From positions 62,246 to 126,245 of the forward strand of contig JAGFNJ010000005.1 of assembly GCA_017592775.1 (NCBI GenBank): a stretch of 64,000 bases of DNA, read 5' to 3'. Position numbers and translations under genes: made by a program. Below the pieces are notes generated by a model. It was not told the DNA's origin. It saw nothing but the letters and a program-made list of their open reading frames with translations, and ran no database searches. This document shows, piece by piece, positions 15,983 to 50,641 of this stretch. The DNA is from Candidatus Accumulibacter conexus (GTDB lineage: Bacteria; Pseudomonadota; Gammaproteobacteria; Burkholderiales; Rhodocyclaceae). Every line of letters begins with the position of its first letter. Position 1 is the first letter of the stretch.

Positions 15983-17431
15983 TCAGTACGATCCCGGGCT
16001 GGCAAAGCTCTCGAAACGCGTGTACTCGCCGAGGAAGGTCAGGCGCACGGTGCCGATCGGACCGTTGCGCTGCTTGCCGATGATGATCTCGGCGACGCCC
16101 TTTTCCGGTGTGTCCGGGTTGTAGACCTCGTCGCGGTAGATGAACATGATCACGTCGGCATCCTGCTCGATGGCTCCCGATTCGCGCAGGTCGGACATCA
16201 CCGGACGCTTGTTCGGCCGCTGTTCGAGCGAGCGATTGAGCTGCGACAGCGCCATCAGCGGCACGCCGAGTTCCTTCGCCAGACCCTTCAGCGAGCGCGA
16301 GATCTCGGAGATCTCGGTCGCCCGGTTCTCGCCATGCGAGGTCGCCGACATCAACTGCAGGTAGTCGATGACGATCAGCCCGAGCTGTCCGCACTGCCGG
16401 TAAAGGCGGCGGGCACGCGCCCGCAGGTCGATCGGATTCAGCGCCGGTGTCTCGTCGATGTAGATCGGCGCCTCGTGCATGCGGCCGAGGGCAAAGGACA
16501 GGCGCGACCATTCATCGTCGTTCAGGCGCCCGGTACGGACGCGGTGCGCGTCGAGACGACCGACCGAGCAGAGCATGCGCATCGCCAGTTGGGTGCCGCC
16601 CATCTCCATCGAGAAAATGGCCACCGGCAGCCCGACCTCGAGCGCCACATGCTCGGCAATGTTCATCGCGAACGAGGTCTTGCCCATCGACGGCCGGCCG
16701 GCGACGATCAGCAGATCGCCGCTCTGCAGGCCGGAGGTCTTGCCGTCGAGGTCGTGGTAACCGGTGGGCACACCGGTGATGTCGGACGGGTTGTCGCGAT
16801 CGTGCAGTTCCTGGATCCGCTCGACGACCTGCGTCAGCAGAGGATTGATATGGACGAAGCCGGTCTGGTGGCGAAAGCCGCCCTCGGCGATGGCAAACAC
16901 CTTCGCCTCGGCTTCGTCGAGCAGTGTTTTCGCGTCGCGGCCGAGCGGGTTGAGCGCGCTGCCGGCAATCTCGTCGCCGGCGGTGACCAGTTGGCGCAGG
17001 ATCGCGCGCTCGCGGACGATCTCGGCATAGCGGCGGATGTTTGCCGCCGACGGCGTGTTCGCCGCCAGTTCGCCGAGGTAGGCCAGGCCACCGGTCGCCT
17101 TGCCCTCGCCGGCCAGATCGAGGCTCTCGGCGACCGTTACCGCGTCGGCCGGCTTGCCACCTTCGAGCAGCTTGCGCATCTGGCGATAGATACGCCGGTG
17201 CTCGTCGCGGTAGAAATCGCCTTCGCCAACCAGGTCAGCGATGCGGTCGAAGGCCGCGTTGTCGAGCAACAGGCCGCCGAGGACCGATTGCTCGGCTTCC
17301 AGCGAATGGGGCGGCACACGCAGCTCGGACAGCACGGAGTCGGGCTGCGGGCCGCTCCCCCGCCGCGGGTTGCGCCCGGCCGGGCGGCGTTGCCCATCAT
17401 CGGGGCTGATTGGGTCGGACGAACTGGCCAT
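15983..17431 (-). CDS. dnaB: replicative DNA helicase
   Basis: 482-aa ORF. PPHSLEAEQSVLGGLL N-terminus, Walker A GRPSMGKTSF, IVIDYLQLM and SQLNRSLEQR motifs. Confidence 0.95.
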   Translation of the reverse strand: MASSSDPISPDDGQRRPAGRNPRRGSGPQPDSVLSELRVPPHSLEAEQSVLGGLLLDNAAFDRIADLVGEGDFYRDEHRRIYRQMRKLLEGGKPADAVTVAESLDLAGEGKATGGLAYLGELAANTPSAANIRRYAEIVRERAILRQLVTAGDEIAGSALNPLGRDAKTLLDEAEAKVFAIAEGGFRHQTGFVHINPLLTQVVERIQELHDRDNPSDITGVPTGYHDLDGKTSGLQSGDLLIVAGRPSMGKTSFAMNIAEHVALEVGLPVAIFSMEMGGTQLAMRMLCSVGRLDAHRVRTGRLNDDEWSRLSFALGRMHEAPIYIDETPALNPIDLRARARRLYRQCGQLGLIVIDYLQLMSATSHGENRATEISEISRSLKGLAKELGVPLMALSQLNRSLEQRPNKRPVMSDLRESGAIEQDADVIMFIYRDEVYNPDTPEKGVAEIIIGKQRNGPIGTVRLTFLGEYTRFESFASPGSY

Positions 17432-17570: not shown

Positions 17571-18029
17571 CTAGATCTTCGCCTGTTCGATGACCACGGC
17601 GACCGTGATCGTCGCCAGAACGTCGCCATGCAGCGCCACTTCCAGTTGTGTCTCGCCAATCGTCTTCAGTGGTCCGCCAGGCATGCGCACGGCCGACTTC
17701 TCGATGTCGAAGCCCTGTGCGCGCAGGCCGTCGGCAACGTCGAAATTGGTCACTGAACCAAACAGGCGACCATCGACACCAGCCTTGCGCGCGATGCGCA
17801 CGACGACACCCGCCAGTTTCTCGGCATAGGCCTGCGCATCGGCCAGCTTCGCCGCCGCCGCCTGCTCGAGTTCGGCCCGCTTCGCTTCGAACTCCTGCAG
17901 CGCCGCCGGCGTCGCGCGCCTGGCCTTGCCGGTCGGGATCAGGAAGTTGCGCGCGTAGCCGTCCTTCACCTTGAGCAGGTCACCGAGATTGCCGAGGTTG
18001 GCGACCTTCTCCATCAGAATGATTTGCAT
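17571..18029 (-). CDS. rplI: 50S ribosomal protein L9
   Basis: 152-aa [35 protein letters not shown]. Confidence 0.95.
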
Positions 18030-18319: not shown

Positions 18320-18701
18320 CTTGATTTCCTTCGACAAATTCGATCTTGGTTACATGCAGTCGCGGCTGCCTGCTGTGGCGGCTGCGCGCGGCGAGAAATC
18401 CGCTCAGCTGCAGCCGTGTCCCGGGACTCGCCGCCTGCAGCCAGTGTGCCGTATCGCCGAGGGCGATCGCCGGCACCTCACATTCGACGCGGCGGTTGCT
18501 GCCTGCCTCGAGCTGCTCCGACTGGTGACCGATCAGGCACTCCGTGACCGGCACTCCGGCCGGGGTGAAACGCAGCGCCTTGCGCTCGATCAGGACTCCG
18601 CTGAGCTCGACACGGTTCAGCAGCGCCGCCGACTCAGGCTGCTGGCTGCTCGCCGGCGGCAGCCGGGTCACGGACTTCCAGCAGCGACTTGGACTTCTCA
18701 T
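18291..18701 (-). CDS. priB: primosomal replication protein N (PriB)
   Basis: OB-fold PriB-like core [35 protein letters not shown]...RLHVTKIEF, in the conserved position between rpsF and rpsR. The start is uncertain. ATG 18701 and GTG 18671 both overlap the rpsF 3' end, and the conserved core begins around 18617. Confidence 0.7.
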
Positions 18702-19014
18702 CCTTCATCATCGGCGACGGCGCAGTGACCGCGCGCTTGGCCTTGATCGTCAGATGACGAAGAATCGCATCGTTGAACTTGAAGCCGTGCTCCAGTTCGG
18801 TCAGCGTCGCGCTGTCGCACTCGATGTTCAGCAGCAGGTAGTGGGCCTTGTGCAGCTTCTGGATCGGATAGGCGAGCTGGCGGCGACCCCAGTCCTCGAG
18901 GCGGTGGATCTGTCCGCCACGCGAGGCGATGAGCCCCTTGTAGCGCTCGACCATCGCCGGCACCTGCTCACTCTGGTCGGGATGGATGATCAGGACGATT
19001 TCGTAATGGCGCAT
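18634..19014 (-). CDS. rpsF: 30S ribosomal protein S6
   Basis: [26 protein letters not shown] begins at ATG 19014. The ORF-track extension to 19107 is treated as spurious. Confidence 0.93.
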
Positions 19015-19077
19015 GAACACTCCTTGTGGCTGAAGCCCCCCGCCATGCGAGCGGTGGAGCAAGGTGAAAAGCCGGCG

Positions 19078-19107
19078 ATTATAGCGCTGCTGCGGCTTCA
19101 CGGGCAA
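19078..19107 (-). promoter_or_regulatory. putative sigma70 promoter of the rpsF-priB-rpsR-rplI operon
   Basis: The minus strand reads TTGCCC-(18 nt)-TATAAT. The -35 lies at 19102-19107 and the -10 at 19078-19083, about 64 nt upstream of the rpsF ATG. Confidence 0.4.
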
Positions 19108-19237: not shown

Positions 19238-19960
19238 CTAAGCCAGCCTCGCCTCCAGCTTGCGCAGCGATGCGCGAACGGTGGCAGCCCTCGCGTCCCC
19301 AACCTCGTCGAGTTTGTCGCAGATCGCCCGCAGAACCTCGAGCGTCGCGTTCGGCGCACTGCTGCCAGCCTTGTCGACGAAGGCGCGGTAGGCTCGCTCG
19401 GCGCCCGGTACGTCCACTCCAAGCAATGCGCGGCAGTCGCCGAGGTCGGCCCACGCCCAGCCGCTGTCGCTGAGTTCCTGCTGTTCCGCCAAGTGCTTGG
19501 TGAGCAGCTTTTCCAGCGTTTCGATGTCCGTGGCAAGGTCGTCGAGGGAGCTCGCGCCCGAGAGCAGGGCCAACTTCACGGCGTTGACCCGATTGTACGT
19601 GCTCTGGTGAACGAAGCTCTCCTCCAACTCCGCGCCCTTGCGGTAGCTGTCGAGAGCGGCACGCGAATCGCCAAGGCGACGCAACATTCCCCCGCGACTG
19701 CCGTAGGCTTCGACGAGTTCGCGCGCGATCGCGGCCACCTCCGGGGTCGGATCCCCGGCGGGCACACGCTGCTCGCGGGGCCACTCGGGAAGGGCAAGCA
19801 GGAACCTGATGATCTCGTCCAATACACCCGCGCCGGCACGGAATTCGGCCACCGCTCTGCTCGCGTCGCCTGCCCTGCCAAACGCCTCGCCGCGCTTGCG
19901 CAGGAGCTTCGCCTGGCGATGCCTCTCGGCCACCTCATCCTGCCAGCGGCTCGCCGTCAT
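19238..19960 (-). CDS. all-helical TPR/DUF4071-like protein, last gene of the caspase operon
   Basis: 240-aa ORF. Its ATG overlaps the stop codon of the upstream caspase gene (ATGA overlap at 19957-19960). It shares motif order with the helical region of the 22916-24928 protein: SYRKGAEL..STYNRVNAVKLALL...GWAWADLGDCRALL versus PYHRAFVA..HYSGINALTLLLL...DYWARASHAEACLLL. Confidence 0.6.
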   Translation of the reverse strand: MTASRWQDEVAERHRQAKLLRKRGEAFGRAGDASRAVAEFRAGAGVLDEIIRFLLALPEWPREQRVPAGDPTPEVAAIARELVEAYGSRGGMLRRLGDSRAALDSYRKGAELEESFVHQSTYNRVNAVKLALLSGASSLDDLATDIETLEKLLTKHLAEQQELSDSGWAWADLGDCRALLGVDVPGAERAYRAFVDKAGSSAPNATLEVLRAICDKLDEVGDARAATVRASLRKLEARLA

Positions 19961-22245
19961 GGTGCGTCTCCTTTCAGCCTCTTGAGGATCGTCTCTGCCA
20001 GGGCGAAGTCTTCCGCCACATCGCTGTCGTACAGCGCTGCCGCAACGTCCTCGCCGAGCTTCTGGTGAAGCGCTTTCGCCGCCTCGGGAAACCCGCGCGG
20101 TTTGACCCGGTACTCAAGATAGAGCCAGGCCGCGATGCGCTGCTCCACCGCCGCGCGTTCAGCATCGCGTTTGATCGGCCTGCTGGCAGCGAACAACGTC
20201 TGCGTTGCCTCGACCCGATCCTTCTCGGTGCTGCTCAACGACTCGGCGGAGCGATCCAGCAGATCGTGCACCTCAGGATAGGCGACGCTGACCGGCTCGA
20301 TCGCTTCGCGGACGACCTGATGCACCCAGTTGTAGCTCGGATCGAGTTCGTCGAACGGCCTTCTCTTCACCAGTGCGTCGGCCAAGTCGTCGAAGGTTCT
20401 TGCGGCGCCCTTCTGGTATCGGCGGGGCTCGAGTTGGGCGTTCATCAGCGCCACCTGCTGGAGCTCGGGTCCCGACTGGCCGTCTGCTCTCCGGACGCGA
20501 GCCGCCAAGTCCGCCCCGGGCAGGTAGCGTTCATCGACGATCTGCAGCGCGCCCCAAGGGCTCACCGCGAGCCGGACTCCGAGTTCGAGGAACGAGGACG
20601 GACTGAAGAGGCTCCAGTCCATGACGCATCCGGCTACCCGGCGGATGTGCTCGTACAGTGCCTGCGAAACGAGCTGCGATGACCCCAGGTCGATCAGGCG
20701 ACGGACACGGGGCTGGCGCACCCCCCGCTGCTGGAGAGCCTTTTCCAGCCCGCGGCGCACGTATAGCCATGCTTCCCGATGTTCAGGACGAAAGGAGCAC
20801 AGTGCGAGCACCAGTCGATCCAACGGAATCGTGCCCCACGACTCGACATCGGAGCCGAGCTGGCGCAGCGAATCGTACGCTGGCAGGTCGAGGTAGCGCG
20901 GCTGCAGCAGGAGCTGATCAAAACCCCTCGCCGTACCCTCGATGAAGCGACGGACAACGGGGTCCTCGGCCACAGTCGTCTCGGTCTCACTGTGCGAGAA
21001 GACCTGCAGATCGCTCAGGTTGAACGGCGTCTCCAACTGGCGGCCTTCGCGCCAGCCGTAGCCGTGGCTGCACAGGGTCACTCCGCGCCGGGTCGCCGCG
21101 CGGATGCCGAGCAGGAACATCACGCCCGGCTCGAAGCGCGTCAGATCGAAAAAGGCCAGGTCGGCCTGGACGACGGCCCGGATCGTGTTCTTGAGTGAGG
21201 ATCGGTTCCTGAAGGCGTCGTGAACGCGAAAGACCACGGTCGTGACGCATCCGGCATCGAAGTCCTCCGGCAAGTCCCGACGGGTTCCAGCCACCGACGA
21301 CCGACCCAGCCAAGAGCGGCGGAAGCGCTGCCAGACGCTATCGCCGGCCTGCAGGAACACGTCATTCACCTTCTCACGCAATGGATCGTCGGATGAGAAG
21401 CCCGCATGCTCGGACTCGACGACGAGGCAGTGCAGCCGCCGCGGATCGAAGTTCTCCCAGAGCGCGCCGTCGGACGATCCGGCGGCCATCGCGGTCCGCC
21501 GGAAGATCGGCTGACGACTGAGCTGTTCCAGAGTGTCCGTGTTGATATCGCCCATGCTGCCAATCGAAGGTCTTTGCGGCGGGAGCCGGGGAAGGGCCGC
21601 TGCCGCGATCTCTTCGCATTGGCCGCCCGTCGCGTTCAGTACCTCCTGGAGCGTTTCGTTGCGGGAGTCCGGGGCGAGGGCTCGCGCCAGTGCAGCCGTA
21701 AAAACGCTGACATCCTTGCCATCACTGCCGCATCGCCAGACGTGGCAAAGCTCTTTCTCTGCGCAGCCGAAGATGCGGATGAAGTTCTTGTCCGGAAATG
21801 CCTGACTGCCCTTTGTCCACGGTCGCCCCCCTTTCTCCGTCCCGTGGTCGCAATCGTCGCGGCACGCATCGATGATGAAGATCACCAGCGCGTCCGGATC
21901 CACGACCGAGGGACTCAGGTCGGTCGAAACGCGGTGCGTGGCGCTGCGAGCTGCCTCAGCACGGCTGACGCCGGCGGGGAGGATCCATTCCTGGCCATCA
22001 ATCGAGACGCCGTGGCCGCTGAAGTAGACAATGCCGACGTCGCTGGTCACCTTCGCGCAGAAATCGCTGATCGCACTTTCGAGCAGGCTGGCATTCCTCA
22101 CCGTGTCGGCCGACACGACTTCGACCGCGAACCCACATGTCGTCAGCGTCCGCTTCATGAGCAGGACATCCTGCTCAGCGGCGGGGAGATTCGTGAAGCC
22201 GTCCCCGTACTCGGCAGCACCGATCAGCAGTGCGCGTCTCGCCAC
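19957..22245 (-). CDS. caspase (peptidase C14)-like domain protein with a central TIR/deoxyribosyltransferase-like module
   Basis: 762-aa ORF. The N-terminus ALLIGAAEYG...VYFSGHGV (His, about aa 78) ...FIIDACRDD (Cys, about aa 128) is a caspase His/Cys dyad pattern. The central ADLAFFDLTRFEPGVMFLLGIRAATRRGVTL resembles the N-terminal module of the 22916-24928 protein. GTG start lies 1 nt after the stop of the upstream small ORF. Confidence 0.8.
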   Translation of the reverse strand: MARRALLIGAAEYGDGFTNLPAAEQDVLLMKRTLTTCGFAVEVVSADTVRNASLLESAISDFCAKVTSDVGIVYFSGHGVSIDGQEWILPAGVSRAEAARSATHRVSTDLSPSVVDPDALVIFIIDACRDDCDHGTEKGGRPWTKGSQAFPDKNFIRIFGCAEKELCHVWRCGSDGKDVSVFTAALARALAPDSRNETLQEVLNATGGQCEEIAAAALPRLPPQRPSIGSMGDINTDTLEQLSRQPIFRRTAMAAGSSDGALWENFDPRRLHCLVVESEHAGFSSDDPLREKVNDVFLQAGDSVWQRFRRSWLGRSSVAGTRRDLPEDFDAGCVTTVVFRVHDAFRNRSSLKNTIRAVVQADLAFFDLTRFEPGVMFLLGIRAATRRGVTLCSHGYGWREGRQLETPFNLSDLQVFSHSETETTVAEDPVVRRFIEGTARGFDQLLLQPRYLDLPAYDSLRQLGSDVESWGTIPLDRLVLALCSFRPEHREAWLYVRRGLEKALQQRGVRQPRVRRLIDLGSSQLVSQALYEHIRRVAGCVMDWSLFSPSSFLELGVRLAVSPWGALQIVDERYLPGADLAARVRRADGQSGPELQQVALMNAQLEPRRYQKGAARTFDDLADALVKRRPFDELDPSYNWVHQVVREAIEPVSVAYPEVHDLLDRSAESLSSTEKDRVEATQTLFAASRPIKRDAERAAVEQRIAAWLYLEYRVKPRGFPEAAKALHQKLGEDVAAALYDSDVAEDFALAETILKRLKGDAP

Positions 22246-22246: not shown

Positions 22247-22531
22247 CTACGGCTTCTTGAACTTCAGCGTGATCGAACCCGAGCCGCTGACTGTGGCTGT
22301 CCCGATGAACTGCACACCGCCTTCGGCGGTGATCTCGACACCGACCTCGACCTCCGAAAGCTCGTAGTTGCCGACCTGCCGAACGTCGCTGAAGACCTCG
22401 GCGAGCAACGCCGTCGCCGACTGCAGGTTTGCGCGCATCGTCGCAACCGGAATCGCGGCAACGCCGACCGCCCTGCCGCCCTTCGCCGGGATCTGCACCA
22501 GAATCGGAAGCGTTTCCTGGTCCGTGCTCAT
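22247..22531 (-). CDS. small beta-rich protein resembling peptidase-co-occurring (trypco2/Pepco-type) partners
   Basis: 94-aa product from ATG 22531, preceded by GGAGGAG. The C-terminal YELSEVEVGVEITAEGGVQFIGTATVSGSGSITLKFKKP matches my memory of the small proteins encoded next to trypsin/caspase peptidases in conflict systems. The longer ORF-track frame to 22855 is treated as spurious. Confidence 0.55.
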   Translation of the reverse strand: MSTDQETLPILVQIPAKGGRAVGVAAIPVATMRANLQSATALLAEVFSDVRQVGNYELSEVEVGVEITAEGGVQFIGTATVSGSGSITLKFKKP

Positions 22532-22915: not shown

Positions 22916-24928
22916 TCACCACAGCCGGCGCGTATCGATCCAGCTCACCCGCCCGGTGCGCCGCTTGACTTCGTTGTACATGTGGCTGGTACCGCCGGGA
23001 CCGTCGCCGCCGCCGCCGTTCCACAGGCAGATGAAGCGGACCTTGTCGACACCCCAGGCGAGCGCGGTATGGAGCAGCCAGAGATTGCAGCGCTCGAAGG
23101 CGCTGATCGTCCTGCCGCGGCCTCCCGCAGGCAGCGGCCCGATTTCCTCGGGCATGATCCGCGGCTCGTCGGCCAGAGTCGCGGTGACGGCGAAGTAGCG
23201 CTCGCGCCACTGCTCGCCATTGCTTGCCGGCAGGATGGAGCGCTCGATGAACTCCGGTTCGGCGAACGGCAGCATCACTTGCAGGCGAACGCCACGCGCC
23301 TGGCAGGCCTCGAGGAACAGCAGATCACCACCGCTGGCCGCCTGCGACAAGGCCAGATCACCGGCTCCGACGCCGAGCTGGTCGAGAACCCGGGCAACCT
23401 GTTCCGCTGCCAGCCCTTCCCGGTCAGCAGGAAAGCGCGGCGGCAGGCGATCGGCGGCATCAATCCTGTGGCCGCTGAACAGCAGCACCTGCCGCGGTGC
23501 AAAGGGTGGCGTGCTGCGCGCGATCTCGCGCTCGACGATGCTCAGGGCAGCGGCCGTCTCCGCCGGGCGAAAATCGATGTCGCGCAACAGGCACAAGGTC
23601 TGCCGGCTCGATTCGAGGGCGAACCAGTCCCGGTTGGCCGCGGCGACCATGTGGCTGAACTCCCGGCGCACCGATTCGACCGGCGCCAGCAGCAGGCACG
23701 CCTCGGCATGGCTGGCACGCGCCCAGTAGTCCTTGCGATCGCGCTCCTGCGCCGTCAGGCTGGCCCAGCGCACGCCGCCGCCGAGGTTCTCGATCAGCCG
23801 GGGATCGCTGTCGCCACCCAGATGCTGCCGCAGCAGCAACAGCGTCAGGGCATTGATGCCGGAGTAATGGTGCGCAGGGTCGGCGACGAAGGCCCGATGA
23901 TAGGGCTCGATCGCCTCGCCCAGGGTAGCGTTCTCGAAACTGGCTGCCTCGCGCATCTGCAGCGGCGACAGCCCGGGCTGGCGCCAGAGCGCCACCCAGC
24001 GCTCCTTCTCGATGCGCCCGGCAAGCGCCCAGCATTCGGCGTCGCGGGGATGATCGGCGGTCAGCCGGTGCACCAGCTCGCGCGCTTCCTCGAAACGGCC
24101 GAGGCGGCCCAGGCAGACCGACTTCCTCTCCCGGCTCGGCTTGTCGTCGGCGTCGATCGTCAACGCCTGTTCGAACTGCTCGAGCGCCAGTTCGTACTGC
24201 TTGAGCTTCAGCAGCGCCTGTCCGGCGGTGCGCCTGGCCTCGAGCTGCAGCGCGCGCACCGGCGTCTCCCCGGCGAGGACGAGGATGTCGCCCGGCCGGT
24301 TCTTCTGCCGCGACACCTCCATCCGGTTCGCCCAGCTTTCATAGGCGTCGGAGAACTCGTTGCGTTCGGCGAGCAGGAGCCGGCGCCACTCCGGTTGCTC
24401 GAGCTGCGGCATCAGTTGGAAGACGGGGCTCACCTTGCGCCGCGTCGAACTGGCCATGCTGGCGCAGACCATCGCCGTCAGCGCTGCGCGATCCTGCTCG
24501 ACGGTCGCCGGGTCCGGCGCGCCGTCGCGCAGCGAGTAGCGCAGCTTGCGGTCGGTGTAGATGTCGAAGGGCTGGTTCGGCCGCGGCCCCTGCACCAGCA
24601 CCACCCCGCGTGCGCGCAGGGCATGCCGTACGCCGAGTTCGTACCAGACGTTCGGGTTGTCGAGGGTCAGATCGGCAACGACGAGATCGGCGATCAGCAA
24701 CTCCTGGAACATGTCGGTGCGGATGTCGCCGGCACGCTGCTCCTCGTCGGCGCGAAACACCTCCATCCCCGCCGCCTCGAGCGCCGGCCGGATGTACTCG
24801 GCATAGACGCGATTGAAGTCGATCAACTGGCCATCGGCTCCGGGCTTGCTGCCGAAGGGCATGGCGACGAAGGCGTGTGGCGGCATCGGCCTCTCCTCAG
24901 CGCGGCGCTGCGTTGGCAGCGGCAGCAA
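22916..24928 (-). CDS. TIR/deoxyribosyltransferase-like + DUF4071 (TRAF-binding-like TPR) + C-terminal SLOG/DprA-like Rossmann domain protein
   Basis: N-terminus FVAMPFGSKPG...ADLVVADLTLDNPNVWYELGVRHALRARGVVLV. The central helical repeats contain HYSGINALTLLLL. The C-terminus reads VLLFSGHRID...SQAASGGDLLFLEACQARGV...ICLWNGGGGDGPGGTSHM. The likely true start is ATG 24886 (MPPHAFVAMPFG, preceded by GAGGAGAGG). The ORF track opens at TTG 24928. Confidence 0.65.
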   Translation of the reverse strand: MLPLPTQRRAEERPMPPHAFVAMPFGSKPGADGQLIDFNRVYAEYIRPALEAAGMEVFRADEEQRAGDIRTDMFQELLIADLVVADLTLDNPNVWYELGVRHALRARGVVLVQGPRPNQPFDIYTDRKLRYSLRDGAPDPATVEQDRAALTAMVCASMASSTRRKVSPVFQLMPQLEQPEWRRLLLAERNEFSDAYESWANRMEVSRQKNRPGDILVLAGETPVRALQLEARRTAGQALLKLKQYELALEQFEQALTIDADDKPSRERKSVCLGRLGRFEEARELVHRLTADHPRDAECWALAGRIEKERWVALWRQPGLSPLQMREAASFENATLGEAIEPYHRAFVADPAHHYSGINALTLLLLRQHLGGDSDPRLIENLGGGVRWASLTAQERDRKDYWARASHAEACLLLAPVESVRREFSHMVAAANRDWFALESSRQTLCLLRDIDFRPAETAAALSIVEREIARSTPPFAPRQVLLFSGHRIDAADRLPPRFPADREGLAAEQVARVLDQLGVGAGDLALSQAASGGDLLFLEACQARGVRLQVMLPFAEPEFIERSILPASNGEQWRERYFAVTATLADEPRIMPEEIGPLPAGGRGRTISAFERCNLWLLHTALAWGVDKVRFICLWNGGGGDGPGGTSHMYNEVKRRTGRVSWIDTRRLW

Positions 24929-24942: not shown

Positions 24943-27900
24943 CTACTCATCGGTTGCCGACCGGGCACGGCGCGGCCGGCCGGAGCGGCGCGGAGCATCG
25001 CCGCCCGCCAGCGGGCGGTCGACGCGCTCGCCCGCACCCGGCCAGACCTGTTCGATGAGCGCGACCAGACGGTCGGCCGCGAGCTGCCACCCCGTCTCGC
25101 CACTGGTGACCCGGCGGGCATCGCAGAAGCGTGACAGCATGCCAATCTGGCTGACGATCGAGTCGAGATCGCGCGGCCGCAAAGCGAGGCTCGCCAGCGT
25201 CTCGGCGTAGGCACGGGCGACTTCCTCGTACGCCCGCTCGCCGGCCTCGCCAGCCTGCAGCAGTTGCTGGTCGAGCAGGCGCTCGATCAGCAACGCGTCG
25301 GCGGCGATGAGCGCATCCCAGACGCCGGCGCCGCTCGCGCTGCCACCGCCGACGCCCTGCCGGCAGTGGCCGGCGAGCGCAATCGCCGCGGCGCGCTGCC
25401 CATCGTCGGGCAGCAGTGCCTCCAGGGCAAGGCGATTGAGCGCATTGTAGGCGCGGAACGAGCTGTCACCCGGCCTGCCCTCACCGGCGGCGTAGAAACG
25501 TGCGCTGTCAAGCAGCGCGCGGTCCACTGCCGCCGCCGCGTCGCCGTCCACCGCCCGCTGCTGCGCCGCACCGCCGTTCCAGGCGGCGAGCAGGCGCGTC
25601 GCATGCAGGCTGGCGAGGCGCTTGGCGGCACCACCGCGCAAGGCGCTGCGCTCGCCACCCGCCGTCGCTGGCGCCGCTCCGTCCGGCTGCCGGCCTGCCG
25701 CGGCGACGACCTGGTCGAGATCGGCGAGGCGTGCGAGAGCCCGCTCGATCAGGCCCGGATCGGCGCTGGCCTCACCGAGGCGAGCCTCGATGTTCGCCAG
25801 TTGCTCGATGGCGCCGATCGGCACTTGGCCGGCGTCATCGTCGTCCTGCAGCGCATCGAGATAGCAGTCACGCGCATCGGCAAACTGACCGAGATCGGCC
25901 CACAGCGCGCCGACGGCGAACTGTACCGCCGGCAGGCGCCGCCAGCCGGCGGGGCAGCGTTCCTTGAGCAGGCGACGGAGGTTCCTGACGCTGGCCTCGA
26001 TCTCGCGTCGTGTCTGCTGACGGCTCGCTCGCGCCAGCCCCGCCCGCCAGCTCACCAGTTCATCGAGCAGTTCGTCGACCGACGCGTAGCCCGAATCGTC
26101 GTTGCCGCGGCCCTCGAGGCGCGGCTCGGCCCGCCAGCCGGGATCGCCGTAGGCCTGGAAGGCACCCCAGGTGATGTCCTGCGCGTTGCTCCTCCAGACC
26201 GCCTTGCGCGCCGCGTACACCGCCTCGCCAAAGGGCAGTCGCTCGACCAGCAGATGGCGGTAGAAGGCATTGCCGAAAACCAGCGCCCCCTGATCGTCGA
26301 CCGCCCAGCCGGCAACGACGACGCAGCGTACACCGCAGTCGATCAGCTCGCGTGCGACGCTGGCGGCAAGCAGGTTGCCGTCACGCACCGTCGCCGCAGT
26401 GTCGGCAGCGGCGACGCTGTCGATCTTGCCGAGATGACAGCAACTGAGGAAGACCAGCTCGGGAACCGTCTCCATCGCCCTGATCTCGGCCGCCGTCAGC
26501 AGCAGCCCGTCGGAGAGGACGACGCCGCTGCGCCGCCGGCCATCGGCGTGCAACTGGTCGAAGACACCATGCGCCGAGATGTACAGCAGCCGATAGTTCT
26601 CCTGATACAGCCGCGTCAGCACGTCGCAAGCACGCCAATCGGCACCGATCGCCGACAGCACCTGATAGCCCATCGCCTGCAGTACGGCAGCCACCTCGTT
26701 CGCCTCGCTCTCGGCGCCGGGCAAGGGTGGCGGATTGGCGGCATCCGGCCGCCGCGGGTCGGGAAAGGCGCGGGTGAAGCCTTCGACCGAGGGATTGCCG
26801 ACGACGAAAGCCCGGCGCTCGAATCCCTGCCGTACCTGCCGCCGGAACTCGCTGGTGGCAAACTGCCGGACCACCGGCGTCCGCAGCGCCAGCGGCAGCT
26901 TCTCGCCACCGCCGCCCGGCGAGTCGGCGAACATCAGCTCCCACGGCAAGTTCGCCGTGTACTCGTCGACCACCAGGACGATCCGCTCGAGCTGCCGGGC
27001 AGCGTCCTTGAAATCGTTCGGCACCATCAGCTGGAAGAGCGCACGGCCGAAACTCTCCTGCCAGACCGTGCTGTGGATCTGCTGCCGGACCAGCATCTCG
27101 ACCAGTCCCGGCTGGCGCTGATGAACGATCGACTCGGCGCGCGCCCGCTGGCCGACATAGAGGAAACGCAGGCGATCGGTGACCGCCGTGCGCGCCGTCC
27201 GCGGCGCCCGCCCGGCGGCGTCGGCGGGCGCCGCGCCGACGGCAGCCGGCGCCGTCGCAGCCACCTCCGCCGGCTCCTGCCGAGCGGCGTCGGTGATCAT
27301 CAGACGCGGCCAGTAGGCAGACCCGCTGCGGTCGAACAGGCGCCGCCGCCAGCCTTCGCCCTGCTGCAATTGTGGCTGGCAGACCAGCGCGACGCCATGG
27401 CGGCCGAGCAGTCCGGCGAGGCGCTCGGGTACCCGGCGCAAGGCATACGCGGCGGTGATCGCCGTGTCCTGGTACAGCTCGACGATGTCGACCCGACTGA
27501 CCCGGATGTGACGCCGGGTTGCCTCGTGAAAGCGTGCGTTGGCCTCGATGACCCCACGCACCAGCGCTTCGACCGAAGCCGCAACCGAAACACTGGCCGA
27601 CGAGTTGTAGCCGAGGAGCAGCGTCGCCAGTGGCAGGTCGCGATCCTCGTCGCCGAGCACGTCGATCGCCTGCAGCAGGTAGCGCAGCACACCCGCCCGC
27701 ACCGCGGCCGTCAGATCCTCGACGTTCAGGCTGCCGTCGTAGCTCCCCAAACCACAGACGACGGCTCCGCGCAGCGACCCGCGCCGCCGCTCCTGTGCGT
27801 TCGGCAATCGCAGCACGACCGTCGCGCTGCCCCGCGGCCCGGCATAGAGGCCCAGGTTGTAGCGTTCGCCGAGATCGCCGTCGAGCAGTTCGCGGTCGAT

Positions 27901-30900
27901 CAGCGCCTCGGCGCCGGAAATCGGATCCTGCTCGTAGTGACCGAGCAGGATCGGCTGCTCGAGGAAACGCAGGTCCATCGCCCGCACGGCCACTTCCAGC
28001 CGGCGCTTCGAGCGCGGTGCGACGCGGTTGCGCGGCGCGCCTCCGAGCAGGCCGACGGCCACTGCTTCGCCGCTCGCCAGCATCGGCGGTCCTGCGTCAT
28101 AGACGACCGGCCGCGCCTCGCCATCGCCGCGCACTGCCGGCGGACTGCGCAGCAGGGCACCGGTGGCGCCGCTGTGCAGCAGTTCGGCGAGCGCCGGATG
28201 GTACTCGCGGGTCGACGGCAGATCGCCGTGCTGCGCCGGCATGTAGTAGTAACTGCCGATGTTCCCGATCCGCCCCGAGGCCCACGTCACCGTGCCGTCA
28301 CCCTGCGTCGTGCCGACCAGCTTCAGCCGCCCCTTCTCCTCGCGGATGCCGCACGGCGTGTTGCGCGCAACGCCGAAGACATAGACCGACTGCTGCTCGT
28401 ATTCCTTCGGCAGGGCGGGCGTCGGCTCGCCATCCTGCCGCCAGAGCCAGCTGCCCTCGTCGAGTTCCGCCTGGCTCGGCGTCGCCGACTGGCCGTCGCC
28501 AAACCAGAAATCCTTCACCTTCTGCCGGTAGTCCTGCCAGGTCTCGGCGCGCTCGAAGCTCTGCCCGCCCAGGCCACCGTCCGGCTGCCCCTGAAAGCAG
28601 TCGACGAAACCCGGCTTTGGCAGCAACTGCAGGGCGCCACGGAAACCGGAGACGATCTGCAGCACTTCGCGCATGTCGTGCCGGACATCGAGTCGCACCA
28701 GCGAGCGCAGCGTGTCACCCTTGCCGAGCAGGTTCTCGACCATCGAGTAGGCGCCCTGGTTCGGCGTGCCGAGCATCACCAGACGGGCGCCCGGCCGCGC
28801 CATCAGCGCATCCATCACCGGCCGCCGCCGATGGATGCAGGCACGCACGACGAGACCGCCCATGCTGTGCGCCAGCAGCCGGATCGGCTGTTGCGTCTCC
28901 AGCAGCAGCCGATCGAGCAGCGCAGCCAGGCGTTCGCCCAGCACGTCGAGCGGCTGCCGCCAGTCGTAGGCAAAGCTCTCGACACGGTGGCTGGCGGCGA
29001 GAAACCTGCAGAGATCGCCATAGAACATGCCGAACAGTTCCTCCGCCTCGACTTCCGGCTGTCCCCAGGCGATCTTGTCGAGGCCGCCACCGGCAATGTC
29101 GAGGGGATCGAACCAGACCCGGTCGCGGCGCCTGACCTGCAGGTGCGACCCCATGACGCCGGGCAGGACGACGACCACCGGCAGATCGGCGACCGCCGCT
29201 TCGCCACCACGCCGCAGCCGGGCGCCGGGCATGGCTGCGTCGGCGAAAGGCCCCGGCAACGGCTGGAAAGCCGCCAGCGAGCCGACATCGCCGCTCACCA
29301 GCCAGTCCCGCAGGGCTGCCCGCGTGTCGATGTTGCTGAAATAGGCGAAGTGCGATACCGCGGCGCCACGGTCGAACAGGGCCCGCGCCCGCGCCTGTGG
29401 CGCGATGCCGGCGTACATAGAATCGGTATCGACGACCAGATCGTTGTCGAGGTTGTCGAACAGCAGGAAGTCGGTCAGCAACACCCCCAGGCGCTGCAGC
29501 ACGCCGCCGCCCTCGATGTCACCGGCGATCACCGCCATCTCGATGCCCGAACGTACCGGCGCCTCGCGCAGCAGGCGCGCCATCGGTGACTCGGGCAGCA
29601 TCGCCTCGATGCCCGGCACCAGGTGGGCACTCGTCCGTCGCCGGGCGATCTCGAGCACGACACGCTTGAAGGCCGAATAGAGCGGATTGCCGAAGAAGAA
29701 CGGAATCTGTCCGAGCAGCGTCAACAGCCCGGAGAGAAAGACATCGAGGTTGCCGCTGGCCAGCCGCGTTCCCTGCGCCGGGCTGGCAACCCGCACGTAG
29801 CGCCGCACGACCAGCTTCTTCGCCGCCAGCTCGCTGGCCAGCGCCCGCAAGAGCTGCCGCTGTTCGCCATGCGCGTCGCCGATCTCGCGCTGCACGACCT
29901 GTGCGGCGGCGGCGTCGGTCTCGCCGGTGGCCGGCAGGTCGCTGCGATAGTGCTCGATCAGGTGGTCGAAATTCTCGAGGCAGATGAGATCACCGACCAG
30001 GCCGCCACGCGAGTGCGAAACCAGACTGAGCTGCAGACCGTCCGGCAGCGCCGCCAGCAACTGCCGCGCGTTCTCGATCGGGCTCTCGGACAGCGTCCGG
30101 TGCTCGAAGGCGTAGATGCGACCGTTGAACTGCCGCTCGAGAACGCTCCACAACTCGCGCTCGTCGAGTTGCAGATCGCCGAAGCTGCCGCGCGTGCTCG
30201 ACCCCGTGCCGTGGATGAAGACGAGGACCGGCTCACCCGCGACAGCAGCCTCCTGCAGCTCCCGCTGCGCCCGCGCCCGCGCCTGCTCGTCCGGTTCTGC
30301 GGCCGGCGCAGCGCCGCGCACCGGCTGCCAGCAGTAGACTCCCGGCTGCCGCTCCAGCCGCTGCTCGATGGCCCACATCAGGGCCTTGGTTCCGAGCCAG
30401 GAAACGCCCAGTTCGACGGCATCGGAACCCCTGCCCCGTGTCAGCTCGGCAAGCCGCTTCCTGGCGTCGGTGATGATCGCGTCTTCACTGGCGCCGACCG
30501 CCAGCGCGAAAACGCGGCTGATCAGGCCGCCGACGAGATCGCCGGCGAGCCCGCGCGTCGCCGCGCCGTCGCTGCGCAGGCGATCGAACAGGATCTCGCC
30601 CTCGCTGCCGAGGAGGTCGGGACGGCTGCGTGCCAGCGACGCCTGCAGCTCGCTGGCGCTGGTGATCAGCACCCCGCCGTCAGCCAGTTCGATGACCAGC
30701 ACCTCGTCCGCCTGCGCCACGTACTTCTGGCTGACGGCGGTGGCGCCGCGCGCCGTCGCGCCGATCTCGAAGCAGGCTCGCGGCTGCAGGTAGCCCGCCG
30801 GCATGAACGGATCATCGCCGGCATCGGCGGCGCGCCGGACGTTGCGCAGCAGTGCCGGCAAGGGTGCCTGATCCTGCGGGCTGGCCGTCAGGTCGAGAAT

Positions 30901-30915
30901 CGTGGTCTGCGACAT
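24943..30915 (-). CDS. giant multidomain protein: two alpha/beta-hydrolase (lipase/LCAT/PGAP1-like) domains + CHAT caspase-fold protease + C-terminal helical repeats
   Basis: About 1990 aa from ATG 30915, preceded by GGAG. Hydrolase 1: VLVFIHGTGSS...LVSHSRGGLV (about aa 250-325 of the ORF-track frame). Hydrolase 2: VVVLPGVMGSHL...RLLAHSMGGLVVRA (about aa 598-710). CHAT: LLYISAHGVF...ELVFLSCCHLGK (about aa 1461-1515). The tail is Ala/Leu-rich and helical. Confidence 0.8.
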   Translation of the reverse strand: MSQTTILDLTASPQDQAPLPALLRNVRRAADAGDDPFMPAGYLQPRACFEIGATARGATAVSQKYVAQADEVLVIELADGGVLITSASELQASLARSRPDLLGSEGEILFDRLRSDGAATRGLAGDLVGGLISRVFALAVGASEDAIITDARKRLAELTRGRGSDAVELGVSWLGTKALMWAIEQRLERQPGVYCWQPVRGAAPAAEPDEQARARAQRELQEAAVAGEPVLVFIHGTGSSTRGSFGDLQLDERELWSVLERQFNGRIYAFEHRTLSESPIENARQLLAALPDGLQLSLVSHSRGGLVGDLICLENFDHLIEHYRSDLPATGETDAAAAQVVQREIGDAHGEQRQLLRALASELAAKKLVVRRYVRVASPAQGTRLASGNLDVFLSGLLTLLGQIPFFFGNPLYSAFKRVVLEIARRRTSAHLVPGIEAMLPESPMARLLREAPVRSGIEMAVIAGDIEGGGVLQRLGVLLTDFLLFDNLDNDLVVDTDSMYAGIAPQARARALFDRGAAVSHFAYFSNIDTRAALRDWLVSGDVGSLAAFQPLPGPFADAAMPGARLRRGGEAAVADLPVVVVLPGVMGSHLQVRRRDRVWFDPLDIAGGGLDKIAWGQPEVEAEELFGMFYGDLCRFLAASHRVESFAYDWRQPLDVLGERLAALLDRLLLETQQPIRLLAHSMGGLVVRACIHRRRPVMDALMARPGARLVMLGTPNQGAYSMVENLLGKGDTLRSLVRLDVRHDMREVLQIVSGFRGALQLLPKPGFVDCFQGQPDGGLGGQSFERAETWQDYRQKVKDFWFGDGQSATPSQAELDEGSWLWRQDGEPTPALPKEYEQQSVYVFGVARNTPCGIREEKGRLKLVGTTQGDGTVTWASGRIGNIGSYYYMPAQHGDLPSTREYHPALAELLHSGATGALLRSPPAVRGDGEARPVVYDAGPPMLASGEAVAVGLLGGAPRNRVAPRSKRRLEVAVRAMDLRFLEQPILLGHYEQDPISGAEALIDRELLDGDLGERYNLGLYAGPRGSATVVLRLPNAQERRRGSLRGAVVCGLGSYDGSLNVEDLTAAVRAGVLRYLLQAIDVLGDEDRDLPLATLLLGYNSSASVSVAASVEALVRGVIEANARFHEATRRHIRVSRVDIVELYQDTAITAAYALRRVPERLAGLLGRHGVALVCQPQLQQGEGWRRRLFDRSGSAYWPRLMITDAARQEPAEVAATAPAAVGAAPADAAGRAPRTARTAVTDRLRFLYVGQRARAESIVHQRQPGLVEMLVRQQIHSTVWQESFGRALFQLMVPNDFKDAARQLERIVLVVDEYTANLPWELMFADSPGGGGEKLPLALRTPVVRQFATSEFRRQVRQGFERRAFVVGNPSVEGFTRAFPDPRRPDAANPPPLPGAESEANEVAAVLQAMGYQVLSAIGADWRACDVLTRLYQENYRLLYISAHGVFDQLHADGRRRSGVVLSDGLLLTAAEIRAMETVPELVFLSCCHLGKIDSVAAADTAATVRDGNLLAASVARELIDCGVRCVVVAGWAVDDQGALVFGNAFYRHLLVERLPFGEAVYAARKAVWRSNAQDITWGAFQAYGDPGWRAEPRLEGRGNDDSGYASVDELLDELVSWRAGLARASRQQTRREIEASVRNLRRLLKERCPAGWRRLPAVQFAVGALWADLGQFADARDCYLDALQDDDDAGQVPIGAIEQLANIEARLGEASADPGLIERALARLADLDQVVAAAGRQPDGAAPATAGGERSALRGGAAKRLASLHATRLLAAWNGGAAQQRAVDGDAAAAVDRALLDSARFYAAGEGRPGDSSFRAYNALNRLALEALLPDDGQRAAAIALAGHCRQGVGGGSASGAGVWDALIAADALLIERLLDQQLLQAGEAGERAYEEVARAYAETLASLALRPRDLDSIVSQIGMLSRFCDARRVTSGETGWQLAADRLVALIEQVWPGAGERVDRPLAGGDAPRRSGRPRRARSATDE

Positions 30916-31066: not shown

Positions 31067-31909
31067 TCAGGTGAGAACCTTCCGCTGACGCGCGTCCGCG
31101 CTGCCGAAGATCTGCGGCGTCTGCGGATACGAGGCAGACGGCAGGTTGGCCGGCGTGATGCGGGCATGCCAGTCAGCATAAGTGGCACCGGCAGGCAGCG
31201 CACGCAGGGTCTTCAACGCGTAGTAGGTGAAAGCACCGCAGGGACGGCCGCCAATCCTGGCGTCGTAGCTGAAGTTGTTCGGCCCTTCCTTGCAGCCGGC
31301 GAGCAGCAGGTCACCGGCCATCCGCGACAGCGCACCGGCAAAAGGCGACAGACCCGAAGTGACCTGGACCGTCGTCAGCGGCTGCCCGCTGAAACCGCGC
31401 GGCAACTGGTCGGCAGGCAGCCAGTTGCCCATCGGCATGAAGCGCGGTCGCGGCGCGTCATCGGCATCCGGATCGGCCAGCGCCGCCCGCGTCACCGTCC
31501 CCGAATGGCAGCTGTCAGAAATCAGCAGCAGCCGCACGCCCGCCTTGCGGGCCGCAAACAGGGTATTGATCTCGTCATCGATCAGGGCGCCGCCACCGGT
31601 CTGCAGGTCGTACGGACACAGCGCCTCGTCGAGTCCGTCAACTTCGTCGCCGTTGAGGTCGGGGACATAGGTTCCGTGTCCCGAGAAGGTCATCACGACG
31701 ACGTCGCCACTGACTGCCGAACCGATCAGCGACTGGATGCCACTGACCATCGCTGCCTTGGTGGCCTGGCTGTCGATCAGCTTGCTGACGGTGAAACCGC
31801 GCGTCGCCAGTTCGCCGGCCCAGTCGTTGGCGTCGTTGACGCAGCCATTCAGGTCCATGTGCGTGCCGGGATAGTTGTTGACACCGATGCAAAGCGCGCG
31901 CTTGCTCAT
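31067..31909 (-). CDS. metacaspase-like peptidase C14 family protein
   Basis: 280-aa ORF. ALCIGVNNYPG...LNGCVNDA...VVMTFSGHGT (His) ...LLLISDSCHSGT (Cys). ATG at 31909 is preceded by AGGAGG. Confidence 0.85.
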   Translation of the reverse strand: MSKRALCIGVNNYPGTHMDLNGCVNDANDWAGELATRGFTVSKLIDSQATKAAMVSGIQSLIGSAVSGDVVVMTFSGHGTYVPDLNGDEVDGLDEALCPYDLQTGGGALIDDEINTLFAARKAGVRLLLISDSCHSGTVTRAALADPDADDAPRPRFMPMGNWLPADQLPRGFSGQPLTTVQVTSGLSPFAGALSRMAGDLLLAGCKEGPNNFSYDARIGGRPCGAFTYYALKTLRALPAGATYADWHARITPANLPSASYPQTPQIFGSADARQRKVLT

Positions 31910-39342: not shown

Positions 39343-39686
39343 ACCGTCCGGTAACCGGCCTGCTGCGACAGCAACTGGCTTGCCGCCCGCGTCCGGTTGC
39401 CACTGCGGCAGATGACGATCACCGGCTCGTTCGCCTTGGCCACCCCCTGTACCTGCTGCAGCCAGGCCGGCGGGTCGGCGCGGCCACGCTCGTCGAAGAG
39501 GGTCAGCAGCCTGCTGTTCGGCACGACCCCGGTCTCCTGCCACTCGCCGGCAGTGCGGATGTCGACCACCGGCACCCCGGCAGCCAGCAGTCGTGCCAGT
39601 TCGGCGTTGCCGATGTCCACCACCTCGGCGCGCAGCAGCAACGGAAAGGTCAGCGCCAGAAAAGGGAAAAGAAGCTTGCCGAGCAT
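39237..39686 (-). CDS. rhodanese-like domain protein (secreted)
   Basis: Signal-like MLGKLLFPFLALTFPLLLRA and an active-site loop VIVICRSGNRT. ATG at 39686. Confidence 0.8.
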   Translation of the reverse strand: MLGKLLFPFLALTFPLLLRAEVVDIGNAELARLLAAGVPVVDIRTAGEWQETGVVPNSRLLTLFDERGRADPPAWLQQVQGVAKANEPVIVICRSGNRTRAASQLLSQQAGYRTVYNVRDGIRAWASEGRPLAPVSGGVATGCAAGAKC

Positions 39687-40011
39687 GATCGATCCTCCAG
39701 AAAGACGCACCGCCTCATCTTACACGCCTGCGCCGCCTGCTGCCTGCTGCCCCTGCCTGCCGCGGTCGGTTCGCGCGGCCGGCGCGCAACTGCCGGCAAT
39801 CCAGGACATGGCCATAAAACGTGCCAAGTCGGAGCGAAGGCTGCCCCTTGCCCAAAAAGCACCCGTAAACCAGCCGTACAGAGACCTCCCGCGAGCCGGC
39901 GCAAGCTTGAAAGATAGCCCTTTTCAGCGTCGCGGCAGCGCGCTACCATGGACGCCTCTGCGGTCAGCGGTCCTTGTCCCAATTGCCCAGCGACGAAAGG
40001 ATACCCCAGTC

Positions 40012-41850: not shown

Positions 41851-41860
41851 GGAGCGAGAA

Positions 41861-43699: not shown

Positions 43700-43700
43700 G

Positions 43701-44756: not shown

Positions 44757-44810
44757 CCGCCGCCCGCGGCGGCCGCTCGCGCGTTGCGGCCGGCACCGAC
44801 GGGCCGGACG

Positions 44811-45170
44811 ATGATCGGCGCCATCACCCTGCTGCTCGTCTTCCAGCTCGTCGGCGAGGTGATCGCCCGCGGACTGGCATTGCCGGTTCCCGGCCCGGTG
44901 ATCGGCATGGCCCTGCTCTTCGTCGCGCTGTGCGTGCGCGGCGGGCCTTCGACCGAGCTGCGCGGCACCGCCCAGGGCATGCTGCAGCACCTCTCGCTGC
45001 TCTTCATCCCGGCTGGCACCGGCATCATGCTGCACTTCCAGCGCATGTCCGACGAGCTGCTGCCGCTGCTCGTCTCGCTGCTCGTCAGCACCGTCGTCAC
45101 CATCGCCGTGACGGCACTCGTCCTGCGCTTCCTCGCCGACCGCAGTGGCAAGCAGGAAAGGACGCCATGA
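44811..45170 (+). CDS. CidA/LrgA family (holin-like) membrane protein
   Basis: 119-aa hydrophobic protein, MIGAITLLLVFQLVGEVIARGLALPVPGPVIGMALLF. Confidence 0.8.
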   Translation: MIGAITLLLVFQLVGEVIARGLALPVPGPVIGMALLFVALCVRGGPSTELRGTAQGMLQHLSLLFIPAGTGIMLHFQRMSDELLPLLVSLLVSTVVTIAVTALVLRFLADRSGKQERTP

Positions 45171-48199: not shown

Positions 48200-48264
48200 C
48201 GTTGCTCGCGTGGTCGGCAAGAATGGCGAAAATTCGCGCCATACCAACGCGGAGCCCAAGAACA

Positions 48265-49465: not shown

Positions 49466-50641
<1,176 letters not shown>

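Follow-up and report, generated by a model that had tools for sequence, protein, structure and literature searches.

We analysed a 64,000-nucleotide (nt) stretch of the genome of Candidatus Accumulibacter conexus (contig JAGFNJ010000005.1, positions 62,246 to 126,245; hereafter the window), in which a minus-strand gene encodes a protein of three modules: a TIR/DRHyd-like N-terminal module, a helical TPR-S/DUF4071 region, and a C-terminal SLOG-fold domain. This gene, the target of our analysis, is the last of three minus-strand genes in a putative operon, following a caspase gene and a gene for a giant lipase–CHAT–TPR-S protein. The family to which it belongs can be summed up as a branch of the DRHyd–TPR-S (ThsI/BcTpr) systems that carries a SLOG, mostly lacks a TIR, and is coupled to executioners of the caspase family. 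The features of the operon, in window coordinates, are as follows.

31067..31909, minus strand: 280-aa caspase (Peptidase_C14), first gene of the putative operon (Pfam)
24943..30915, minus strand: giant protein of ~2,000 aa with three DUF7379/LCAT-like alpha/beta-hydrolase domains, a CHAT protease, and a weak C-terminal TPR-S (Pfam)
22916..24886, minus strand: whole target gene, DRHyd/TIR-like – TPR-S – SLOG protein of 656 aa, stop codon 22916-22918 included, start revised to the ATG at 24886
24377..24886, minus strand: predicted N-terminal Rossmann-like N-glycosidase module (MilB/DNPH1/TIR fold), residues ~1-170 (model, Foldseek, PADLOC TIR match)
23507..24256, minus strand: helical TPR-S/DUF4071 (MAP3K TRAF-binding-like) module, residues ~211-460 (Pfam)
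22919..23503, minus strand: C-terminal SLOG-fold domain, residues 462-656, 195 aa (model, Foldseek, conservation)

A three-module gene behind a caspase and a CHAT-lipase giant

We confirmed that the target is a real gene and no chance open reading frame (ORF). The ORF spans 22916..24928 on the minus strand, 670 codons counted from a TTG, and its third-position GC of 0.87 is typical for real genes in the window (~67% GC). It has 2,220 homologues at E ≤ 1e-5, mostly full length, the best of them from Candidatus Accumulibacter at up to 93-95% identity, and members of the family come mainly from taxa that form aggregates (Accumulibacter, Zoogloea, Thauera, Crenothrix, and Nitrospira). The TTG at 24928 is merely the longest-ORF start; we prefer the ATG at 24886 because GAGGAG stands ahead of it and because the resulting 656-aa protein, which starts MPPHAFVAMPFG, agrees with homologues in N-terminus and length (650-656 aa). 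The motifs singled out by a first-pass annotation made from the letters alone, FVAMPFG…ADLVVADLT..NPNVWYELGVRHALRARGVVLV and LLFSGHRID…ASGGDLLFLEAC…LWNGGGGDGPGGTSHM, lie at residues 6-98 and 468-636, respectively.

Upstream of the target, the ORF of the giant extends to a TTG at 30969, with its first ATG at 30915 and a TAG stop at 24945-24943. Its C-terminal TPR-S is below threshold (E 2.9e-4) but clear in homologues of the giant (E 1e-11 to 8e-7), and its catalytic motifs are intact, with HSRGG and HSMGG nucleophile elbows and the CHAT His/Cys, as is the His/Cys dyad of the 280-aa caspase (motifs SGHG and DSCHSG). The target had been placed 15-57 nt past the giant; the gap that we measure is 56 nt if the target starts at the ATG and 14 nt if it starts at the TTG. 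No terminator-like site is found in the 56-nt gap. The two genes share a strand and their adjacency recurs in other genomes, so co-transcription, as the first-pass annotation proposed, is plausible.

For the N-terminus, an AlphaFold model of residues 1-178 (predicted local distance difference test, pLDDT, 82.6; built on 31 sequences) was compared with the PDB by Foldseek, yielding MilB (4ohb/4jem, E 2e-5), the TIR of TIR-STING, DNPH1, BcmB, and the SARM1 TIR, all with probability 1.0 and with the TIR-STING and SARM1 structures ranking beneath MilB. Because these are its best fold matches, the modelled N-terminus is placed in the TIR/DRHyd Rossmannoid class, nearest to nucleoside-deoxyribosyltransferase-like glycosidases rather than to canonical TIRs. 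The PADLOC TIR effector model matches it at E 1.7e-6, and the canonical Pfam family TIR_2 reaches only 13.5 bits against a cutoff of 28 (E 0.11). The TIR or nucleoside-deoxyribosyltransferase-like module proposed earlier thus finds support in the Foldseek matches and the PADLOC model.

The module carries M9-P10, D58, N77-P78-N79, and E83, and its modelled fold, together with a predicted catalytic Glu and Asn residues predicted to bind phosphate and ribose, is that of a DRHyd, or nucleoside 2-deoxyribosyltransferase-like, N-glycosidase. In a single suggestive match, a sub-threshold alignment drawn from sequence only, the target motif ADLVVADLTLDNPNVWYELG aligns to ADVVVAEVTQPSLGVGYELG of DNPH1, and E83 there falls on the Glu of DNPH1's conserved GYELG motif, the catalytic nucleophile of that enzyme. 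N79 and E83 are invariant in 37/37 close homologues, and this conservation of the N…E residues makes it probable that the N-terminal module acts as an enzyme and effector and is more than a sensor. The label "nucleotide-sensing" given earlier to the protein therefore stands in part: it is plausible for the SLOG domain, where sensing is not told apart from nucleotide processing or signal making, and for the N-terminus it probably covers only part of the function.

The middle module matches Pfam TPR-S (PF20308) at E 3e-21 (76.2 bits, cutoff 27.6) and MAP3K_TRAF_bd, formerly DUF4071 (PF13281), at 28.0 bits (cutoff 24.1), bearing out the DUF4071 (TRAF-binding-like) helical repeats recognised in the first reading. 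In passing the gathering threshold of PF13281 it resembles the regulatory region of ASK1/MAP3K5, although the target has no kinase and a sequence search of the PDB with the target returned no ASK1 chain among its matches. Burroughs and Aravind are said to have claimed DRHyd ancestry for the N-terminus of ASK1. One 799-aa relative (P0156) begins with a Ser/Thr protein kinase, followed by TPR-S/MAP3K_TRAF_bd and a target-type SLOG; it is a bacterial kinase joined to ASK1-type regulatory repeats and could shed light on how the ASK signalosome arose.

The C-terminal domain was modelled from a diverse 41-sequence alignment as five parallel strands (pLDDT 95.6; predicted template modelling score, pTM, 0.92). 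Foldseek against the PDB ranked YpsA first (2nx2, E 1.5e-7, template modelling score 0.60), followed by the Moco carrier protein, ShosA, TM1055, DprA, YgdH, and YvdD, all of the SLOG fold, and among the best 22 matches each one with a probability of at least 0.87 was a SLOG-fold protein. Matches in a viral structure library were to DprA-like, DUF2493, and YspA proteins. The glycine-rich loops lie where a SLOG has them, SGH past strand 1, GGD past strand 2, and GDGPGGT past strand 4, and the signature SGHxxDxxxRxxPRFP … GGD … WxGxxGDGPGGT is specific to the target's clade. G472, H473, D476, R484, G519, D521, S550, W560, W622, G631, and G632 are invariant among homologues of 33-65% identity. A SLOG/DprA-LOG-type Rossmann domain, as had been suggested, is thus borne out by the model and by high-probability fold matches to SLOG proteins only.

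Profile libraries give this domain no name. Pfam and NCBIfam return nothing for the C-terminus, Pfam not even at E ≤ 1; none of the named Pfam SLOG families (YpsA, YAcAr, STALD, TPALS, LOG, DprA) matches significantly, and YAcAr is weakly touched by 6/41 SLOG-domain homologues (best E 0.046). For the terminal domains, phmmer and profile searches of PDB sequences gave only TPR designs or the chance matches PPK2 and TACO1 ("Translational activator of cytochrome c oxidase 1"), and the profile search with the C-terminal domain produced no significant match. The PPK2 likeness, which covers the GGDGPGGT stretch at E 0.8 in the profile search, we rejected as a P-loop-like chance match because the fold search gives only SLOG proteins. 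Across profile and structure searches neither terminal domain went to an unrelated fold, the N-terminus being MilB/TIR-type and the C-terminus SLOG, and the three-module view of the protein is supported.

With the SLOG domain alone as query we recovered 2,621 clusters at 50% identity, comprising free-standing proteins of ~200 aa and multi-domain proteins. In all 10 of the longer multi-domain proteins examined the domain sits behind TPR-S, and in most of the ten the N-terminus ahead of TPR-S–SLOG varies: patatin, Ser/Thr kinase, SLATT_1, AAA_35 with TIR_2, or a ParA/MinD-like ATPase. We also saw a sigma-54 AAA+ module, but this lay downstream of the SLOG domain and not ahead of TPR-S. Since the invariant SLOG residues listed above never change, the N-termini vary, and N79 and E83 are lost in 5/17 divergent relatives, TPR-S and SLOG form the constant core of the family, with the N-terminal position resembling an effector slot.

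Kinship to ThsI and BcTpr, and the exchange of SLOG for TIR

Two characterised systems resemble the front of the target. In type VIII Thoeris, a ThsB TIR makes canonical cyclic ADP-ribose (cADPR) upon infection, and the effector ThsI, described as "CMP hydrolase and TPR", is toxic with supplied cADPR, its TPR being the presumed receptor (bioRxiv 10.64898/2025.12.03.692087). Like ThsI, the target combines a MilB-like, CMP-hydrolase-like N-glycosidase N-terminus with TPR-S/PF13281 repeats. Relatives of the target that lack a SLOG are frequent on plasmids, where they are annotated as "TRAFs-binding domain-containing protein"; one of them, a 402-aa ThsI-type protein with TPR-S and PF13281 on an Escherichia coli IncHI1 plasmid, aligns to target residues 9-345 (26% identity, E 6e-25) and adjoins two TIR genes and a SLATT gene. 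The TIR beside this protein shares 56% identity with the validated type VIII ThsB of Yersinia enterocolitica, and it is by this context that the 402-aa protein, and with it the homology over residues 9-345, is assigned to the ThsI type.

The second system, BcTir/Tpr of Bacillus cereus, includes BcTpr, a protein with a MilB-like N-terminus and a TPR region that binds cADPR, in which mutagenesis showed N82 and E86 to be required for NADase activity, production of a cADPR isomer, and defence (bioRxiv 10.1101/2023.05.26.542521). A MilB-like glycosidase and a TPR region are thus common to both proteins, and the N80-P81-N82…E86 of BcTpr has the same spacing as N77-P78-N79…E83 of the target, an equivalence by motif and spacing only. 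BcTpr differs in its length of 415 aa, in its pairing with a TIR gene, and in having no SLOG. The same preprint draws on Burroughs & Aravind 2020 for a list of assemblies that includes "YspA-Tpr", "Patatin-Tpr", and caspase-containing ones (bioRxiv 10.1101/2023.05.26.542521), so the general association had already been noticed computationally.

The target departs from both relatives in the same place. ThsI-type proteins are ~400 aa long and end without a SLOG, whereas the target has an additional 195-aa SLOG; they nearly always have an adjacent ThsB TIR gene, whereas the partners of the target are the caspase and the CHAT-lipase giant. A tblastn search with TIR queries found no match in the 64-kb window. 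Because the defining adjacent ThsB gene is absent, the target should not be filed as type VIII Thoeris, whose effector ThsI has canonical cADPR as its ligand.

To compare the two arrangements, we collected 80 loci of SLOG-less ThsI-type genes (a single-protein ThsI query had given 5) and 82 loci of SLOG-fused genes from GTDB species, and searched both sets with a hidden Markov model of ThsB-type TIRs. A ThsB-like TIR was present in 68/80 SLOG-less loci, within 300 bp in 63 of these (median 36 bp), and in 6/82 SLOG-fused loci (Fisher p 1.6e-25). Counting any TIR, the SLOG-fused loci rose to 20/82, 5 of them with an adjacent TIR, against 68/80 (p 2e-15); for both comparisons the sets differ in taxonomy and the p values ignore phylogeny. 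Larger flanks were searched in the SLOG-fused set, so the contrast is conservative. SLOG and ThsB-type TIRs are therefore complementary as partners of DRHyd–TPR-S proteins. They are not strict alternatives, since three ThsI-type loci (L174, L177, and L191) hold both a TIR and a stand-alone SLOG.

The neighbourhoods of the family extend the link to executioner proteins. Homologues of the giant adjoin the target family in 21/82 SLOG-fused loci and a caspase in 20/82, with varying gene order; a patatin gene occurs in 31/82, in most cases on the same strand and downstream, and in ~20 of them only tens of bp away. Among the 47 of these loci with at least 5 kb on each side, 15 have patatin only, 12 caspase/CHAT only, 5 both, and 15 neither. 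Stand-alone SLOG genes of the same clade adjoin lipase–CHAT–TPR-S giants in 11/30 loci, sometimes with a caspase between, a Rosetta-stone pattern that connects the SLOG domain functionally to TPR-S and to the caspase/CHAT machinery.

Two islands illustrate the range of combinations. At L002 (JGI Ga0484961_0000013) the family member lies amid pYEATS, a TPR-S and trypsin protein, and two TIR proteins, with a lipase–CHAT–TPR-S giant and its caspase on the opposite strand; several effectors in this one island reuse TPR-S. At L161 (Rhizobium leguminosarum plasmid CP050566.1, 33.7-41.4 kb) a stand-alone SLOG accompanies a 307-aa TPR-S protein, SLATT (DUF4231), DUF3380, patatin, and a ThsI-like DUF4071 protein of 444 aa; the annotation shows no TIR gene, and the set resembles that of type VII/VIII Thoeris effectors with SLOG replacing TIR.

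Signal maker or receptor: two possible roles of the SLOG domain

We favour, with somewhat better than even confidence, a reading in which the target is a ThsI/BcTpr-like N-glycosidase effector whose fused YpsA/YspA-like SLOG replaces the separate TIR partner and which works with the caspase and the lipase–CHAT–TPR-S giant in a suicide or defence module controlled by a nucleotide signal. The analysis establishes the folds, the conservation of the catalytic residues, the homology to ThsI-type proteins, the recurring gene neighbourhoods, and the complementarity of SLOG and TIR; what we say below about the ligand, about the maker and the reader of the signal, about toxicity, and about a part in antiviral defence is inferred. 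The operon would be a Thoeris-like abortive infection or cell suicide module signalling by an NAD+- or nucleotide-derived small molecule. Its constant TPR-S and SLOG pair would form the input unit, the SLOG handling the nucleotide and TPR-S coupling it to effectors. Once triggered, the N-terminal glycosidase would cleave NAD+ or nucleotides, causing depletion, producing more signal, or both. The caspase would be co-activated as an executioner, and so would the CHAT–lipase giant, by way of which a second TPR-S enters the operon.

This scheme leaves two places for the SLOG domain, which we rate about equally, each as a possibility well short of probable. The fused SLOG may be an enzyme that replaces the ThsB TIR, responds to infection, and converts NAD+ or a nucleotide to a second messenger, with the TPR-S of the target and of the giant as receptors that switch on glycosidase, protease, and lipase. 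We hold this tentatively. The near mutual exclusion of ThsB-type TIR and SLOG as partners of DRHyd–TPR-S proteins speaks for it, as do minimal operons that pair a stand-alone SLOG gene with the lipase–CHAT–TPR-S giant, with or without a caspase, and the TIR-less annotation of the Rhizobium plasmid locus, where SLOG, the TPR-S protein, SLATT, patatin, and the ThsI-like gene occur together. No TIR recurred among the neighbour families of stand-alone SLOG loci, on which no dedicated TIR search was made. The polar loop residues that follow the strands (H473, D476, R484, D521, and S550) are invariant even at 33-40% identity, SLOG, TIR, and DRHyd belong to a single Rossmannoid clade, and the making of ADPR-derived signals has been predicted for some SLOGs. 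The receptor role presumed for TPR by the type VIII Thoeris authors, with cADPR as ligand, would suit the same arrangement (bioRxiv 10.64898/2025.12.03.692087).

Other evidence pulls away from a signal-making SLOG. The three loci noted above carry both a TIR and a stand-alone SLOG. The catalytic motif of LOG enzymes is PGGxGTxxE, but the target's clade keeps it only in part, and the corresponding Glu, E639, is not conserved in divergent members. SLOGs studied in immunity, moreover, are receptors, the SLOG domain of ThsA binding 3'cADPR, and TRPM2 binds ADPR.

These precedents lead to the converse assignment, already raised in the first-pass annotation, in which the SLOG binds a nucleotide signal and thereby frees the N-terminal glycosidase from autoinhibition, as in ThsA (SIR2–SLOG). 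The signal could be a cADPR isomer or other ADPR derivative, and it would come from TIRs encoded elsewhere or from the protein's own N-terminus. The closest fold match of the domain is YpsA, whose clade is said to include cADPR sensors; the order effector–linker–SLOG is that of ThsA of type I Thoeris; and SLATT domains, which take their name from occurring together with SLOG, are found joined to TPR-S–SLOG. The resemblance to ThsA and to Bacillus subtilis YpsA has its bounds: ThsA has a SIR2 effector, whereas the target has a glycosidase and an interposed TPR-S, and the target SLOG differs from both in having no significant match to Pfam STALD, YpsA, LOG, or DprA and touching YAcAr weakly only. 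Since BcTpr is reported both to make a cADPR isomer and to bind cADPR (bioRxiv 10.1101/2023.05.26.542521), a self-contained loop is conceivable. A receptor SLOG needs a source of signal, however, and we detected no TIR gene in the window and any TIR nearby in only 20 of the 82 family loci; in patatin– and kinase–TPR-S–SLOG fusions the polypeptide itself includes no signal generator, and the strong complementarity with ThsB is left unexplained. The receptor role, too, we hold tentatively.

The operon differs in composition from type IV Thoeris, in which a TIR and a caspase-like protease activated by N7-cADPR make up a comparable nucleotide-signalling immune operon with a caspase-family executioner. 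The target operon has instead a plain C14 caspase and a CHAT domain in a 2,000-aa lipase giant with TPR-S, and no TIR.

Genomic setting and significance of the family

The other features of the window are as follows.

15983-17431, minus strand: dnaB
17571-18029, minus strand: rplI
18634-19107, minus strand: rpsF
19960..19238, minus strand: 240-aa TPR-like protein of a downstream gene trio
22245..19957, minus strand: 762-aa protein of the trio with an N-terminal "EACC1-associated" caspase
22531..22247, minus strand: 94-aa Pepco/Trypco1 protein of the trio (ATG 22531)
22797-22768, minus strand: promoter-like site TTGACG-18-TATACT
39397-48065, plus strand: metabolic genes (2-oxoacid:ferredoxin oxidoreductase subunits, a pyridine-nucleotide oxidoreductase/ferredoxin fusion, CoA transferase)
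48196-63346, plus strand: type III CRISPR-Cas locus
48196-49413, plus strand: Cas_NE0113
50419-53319, plus strand: Cas10
53677-54501 and 55173-57095, plus strand: RAMP proteins
56972-58114, plus strand: Cas6
~58189-62838, plus strand: CRISPR array of ~65 repeats, 36-nt repeat GTCAGTATGCAGCCCTGAAAACAAAGGGATTGAGAC
62999-63346, plus strand: Cas2

The trio lies directly beyond the target, whose stop had been put 385 bp upstream of the trio's promoter region; the distance nearly holds, but as 384 nt to the trio's ATG at 22531. Homologues of the 762-aa caspase and of the 240-aa protein occur in 0/82 related loci, and we rejected the trio as part of the target system; it is a separate Pepco/EACC1-type system. 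The low-GC, ORF-poor block at 58-62 kb is explained by the CRISPR array, and an interpretation as ribosomal RNA was rejected because Rfam finds nothing there. Between the protease/SLOG cluster and the CRISPR locus lie ordinary metabolic genes, so that this region is no single contiguous defence island. As context in favour of a defence role, the window also holds the Pepco–caspase system and the type III CRISPR-Cas genes. The protease/SLOG cluster itself is inserted directly upstream of rpsF, rplI, and dnaB, an unusual chromosomal setting for a putative defence cluster.

Several observations weigh against the N-glycosidase effector reading that we favour. The target locus adjoins rpsF-rplI-dnaB with no obvious mobile island; 15 of the 47 well-flanked loci have no recognised effector neighbour; and at one locus that we checked (L001) the family member lies amid housekeeping genes. 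No known defence-system model of PADLOC v2 covers the target, which draws a weak TIR match only. The loss of the N…E catalytic pair in some divergent relatives means that glycosidase activity is not universal in the family. Finally, the preprints on the relatives disagree on the signal maker, which is the TIR in type VIII Thoeris and BcTpr itself in BcTir/Tpr.

Part of this evidence would also suit an operon that is not antiviral at all, acting instead as a regulated cell-death or developmental switch, or as a stress or redox switch, in bacteria that grow as flocs or filaments, parallel to the ASK1 signalosome with its DUF4071 repeats in the regulatory region, the SLOG reading an endogenous metabolite. 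The chromosomal position beside rpsF-rplI-dnaB and the loci without effector neighbours agree with such a role, as do the concentration of the family in aggregate-forming taxa, the existence of a kinase–TPR-S–SLOG relative, and the effect of YpsA on cell division. We nevertheless consider it improbable: the closest characterised relatives, ThsI and BcTpr, are anti-phage; the genes that adjoin the family (patatin, caspases, TIR-STAND-WD40, and pYEATS) encode effectors of a classic defence type; and variable effector swapping is typical of conflict systems.

The architecture of the target was partly anticipated by comparative genomics, and its domain annotation is confirmatory. More specific and open to test, and of potential importance, are the exchange of SLOG for TIR and the connection with the CHAT-lipase giant. 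Thoeris-type immunity as so far described consists of a TIR that makes an ADPR-derived signal and an effector that reads it; here, a widespread family of more than 2,200 full-length proteins keeps the ThsI-type core, has almost always lost the TIR partner, has gained an un-modelled SLOG by fusion, and is wired to caspase/CHAT-lipase or patatin executioners. It is conceivable, though we would not yet count on it, that the target's SLOG clade is a signal-generating or infection-sensing enzyme in the role of the ThsB TIR, defining a TIR-less Thoeris-type branch in which SLOG and TPR-S form a portable control unit driving an N-glycosidase, a patatin, a kinase, a SLATT pore, or a caspase with the CHAT-lipase giant. 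If so, one operon would join NAD+/nucleotide signalling to a caspase-family proteolytic and lipolytic death machine, in a domain logic that echoes the animal ASK signalosome, and the substitution would give the SLOG fold a new role in immune signalling and define a new class of TIR-independent systems. If the SLOG is instead a receptor, the family would provide a modular nucleotide-gated switch for proteases, lipases, and kinases. Under either role, the bacterial caspase machinery of the target operon is linked to the domain set of animal ASK1, and thousands of proteins now annotated as DUF4071, TRAFs-binding, or TPR would gain a testable annotation.

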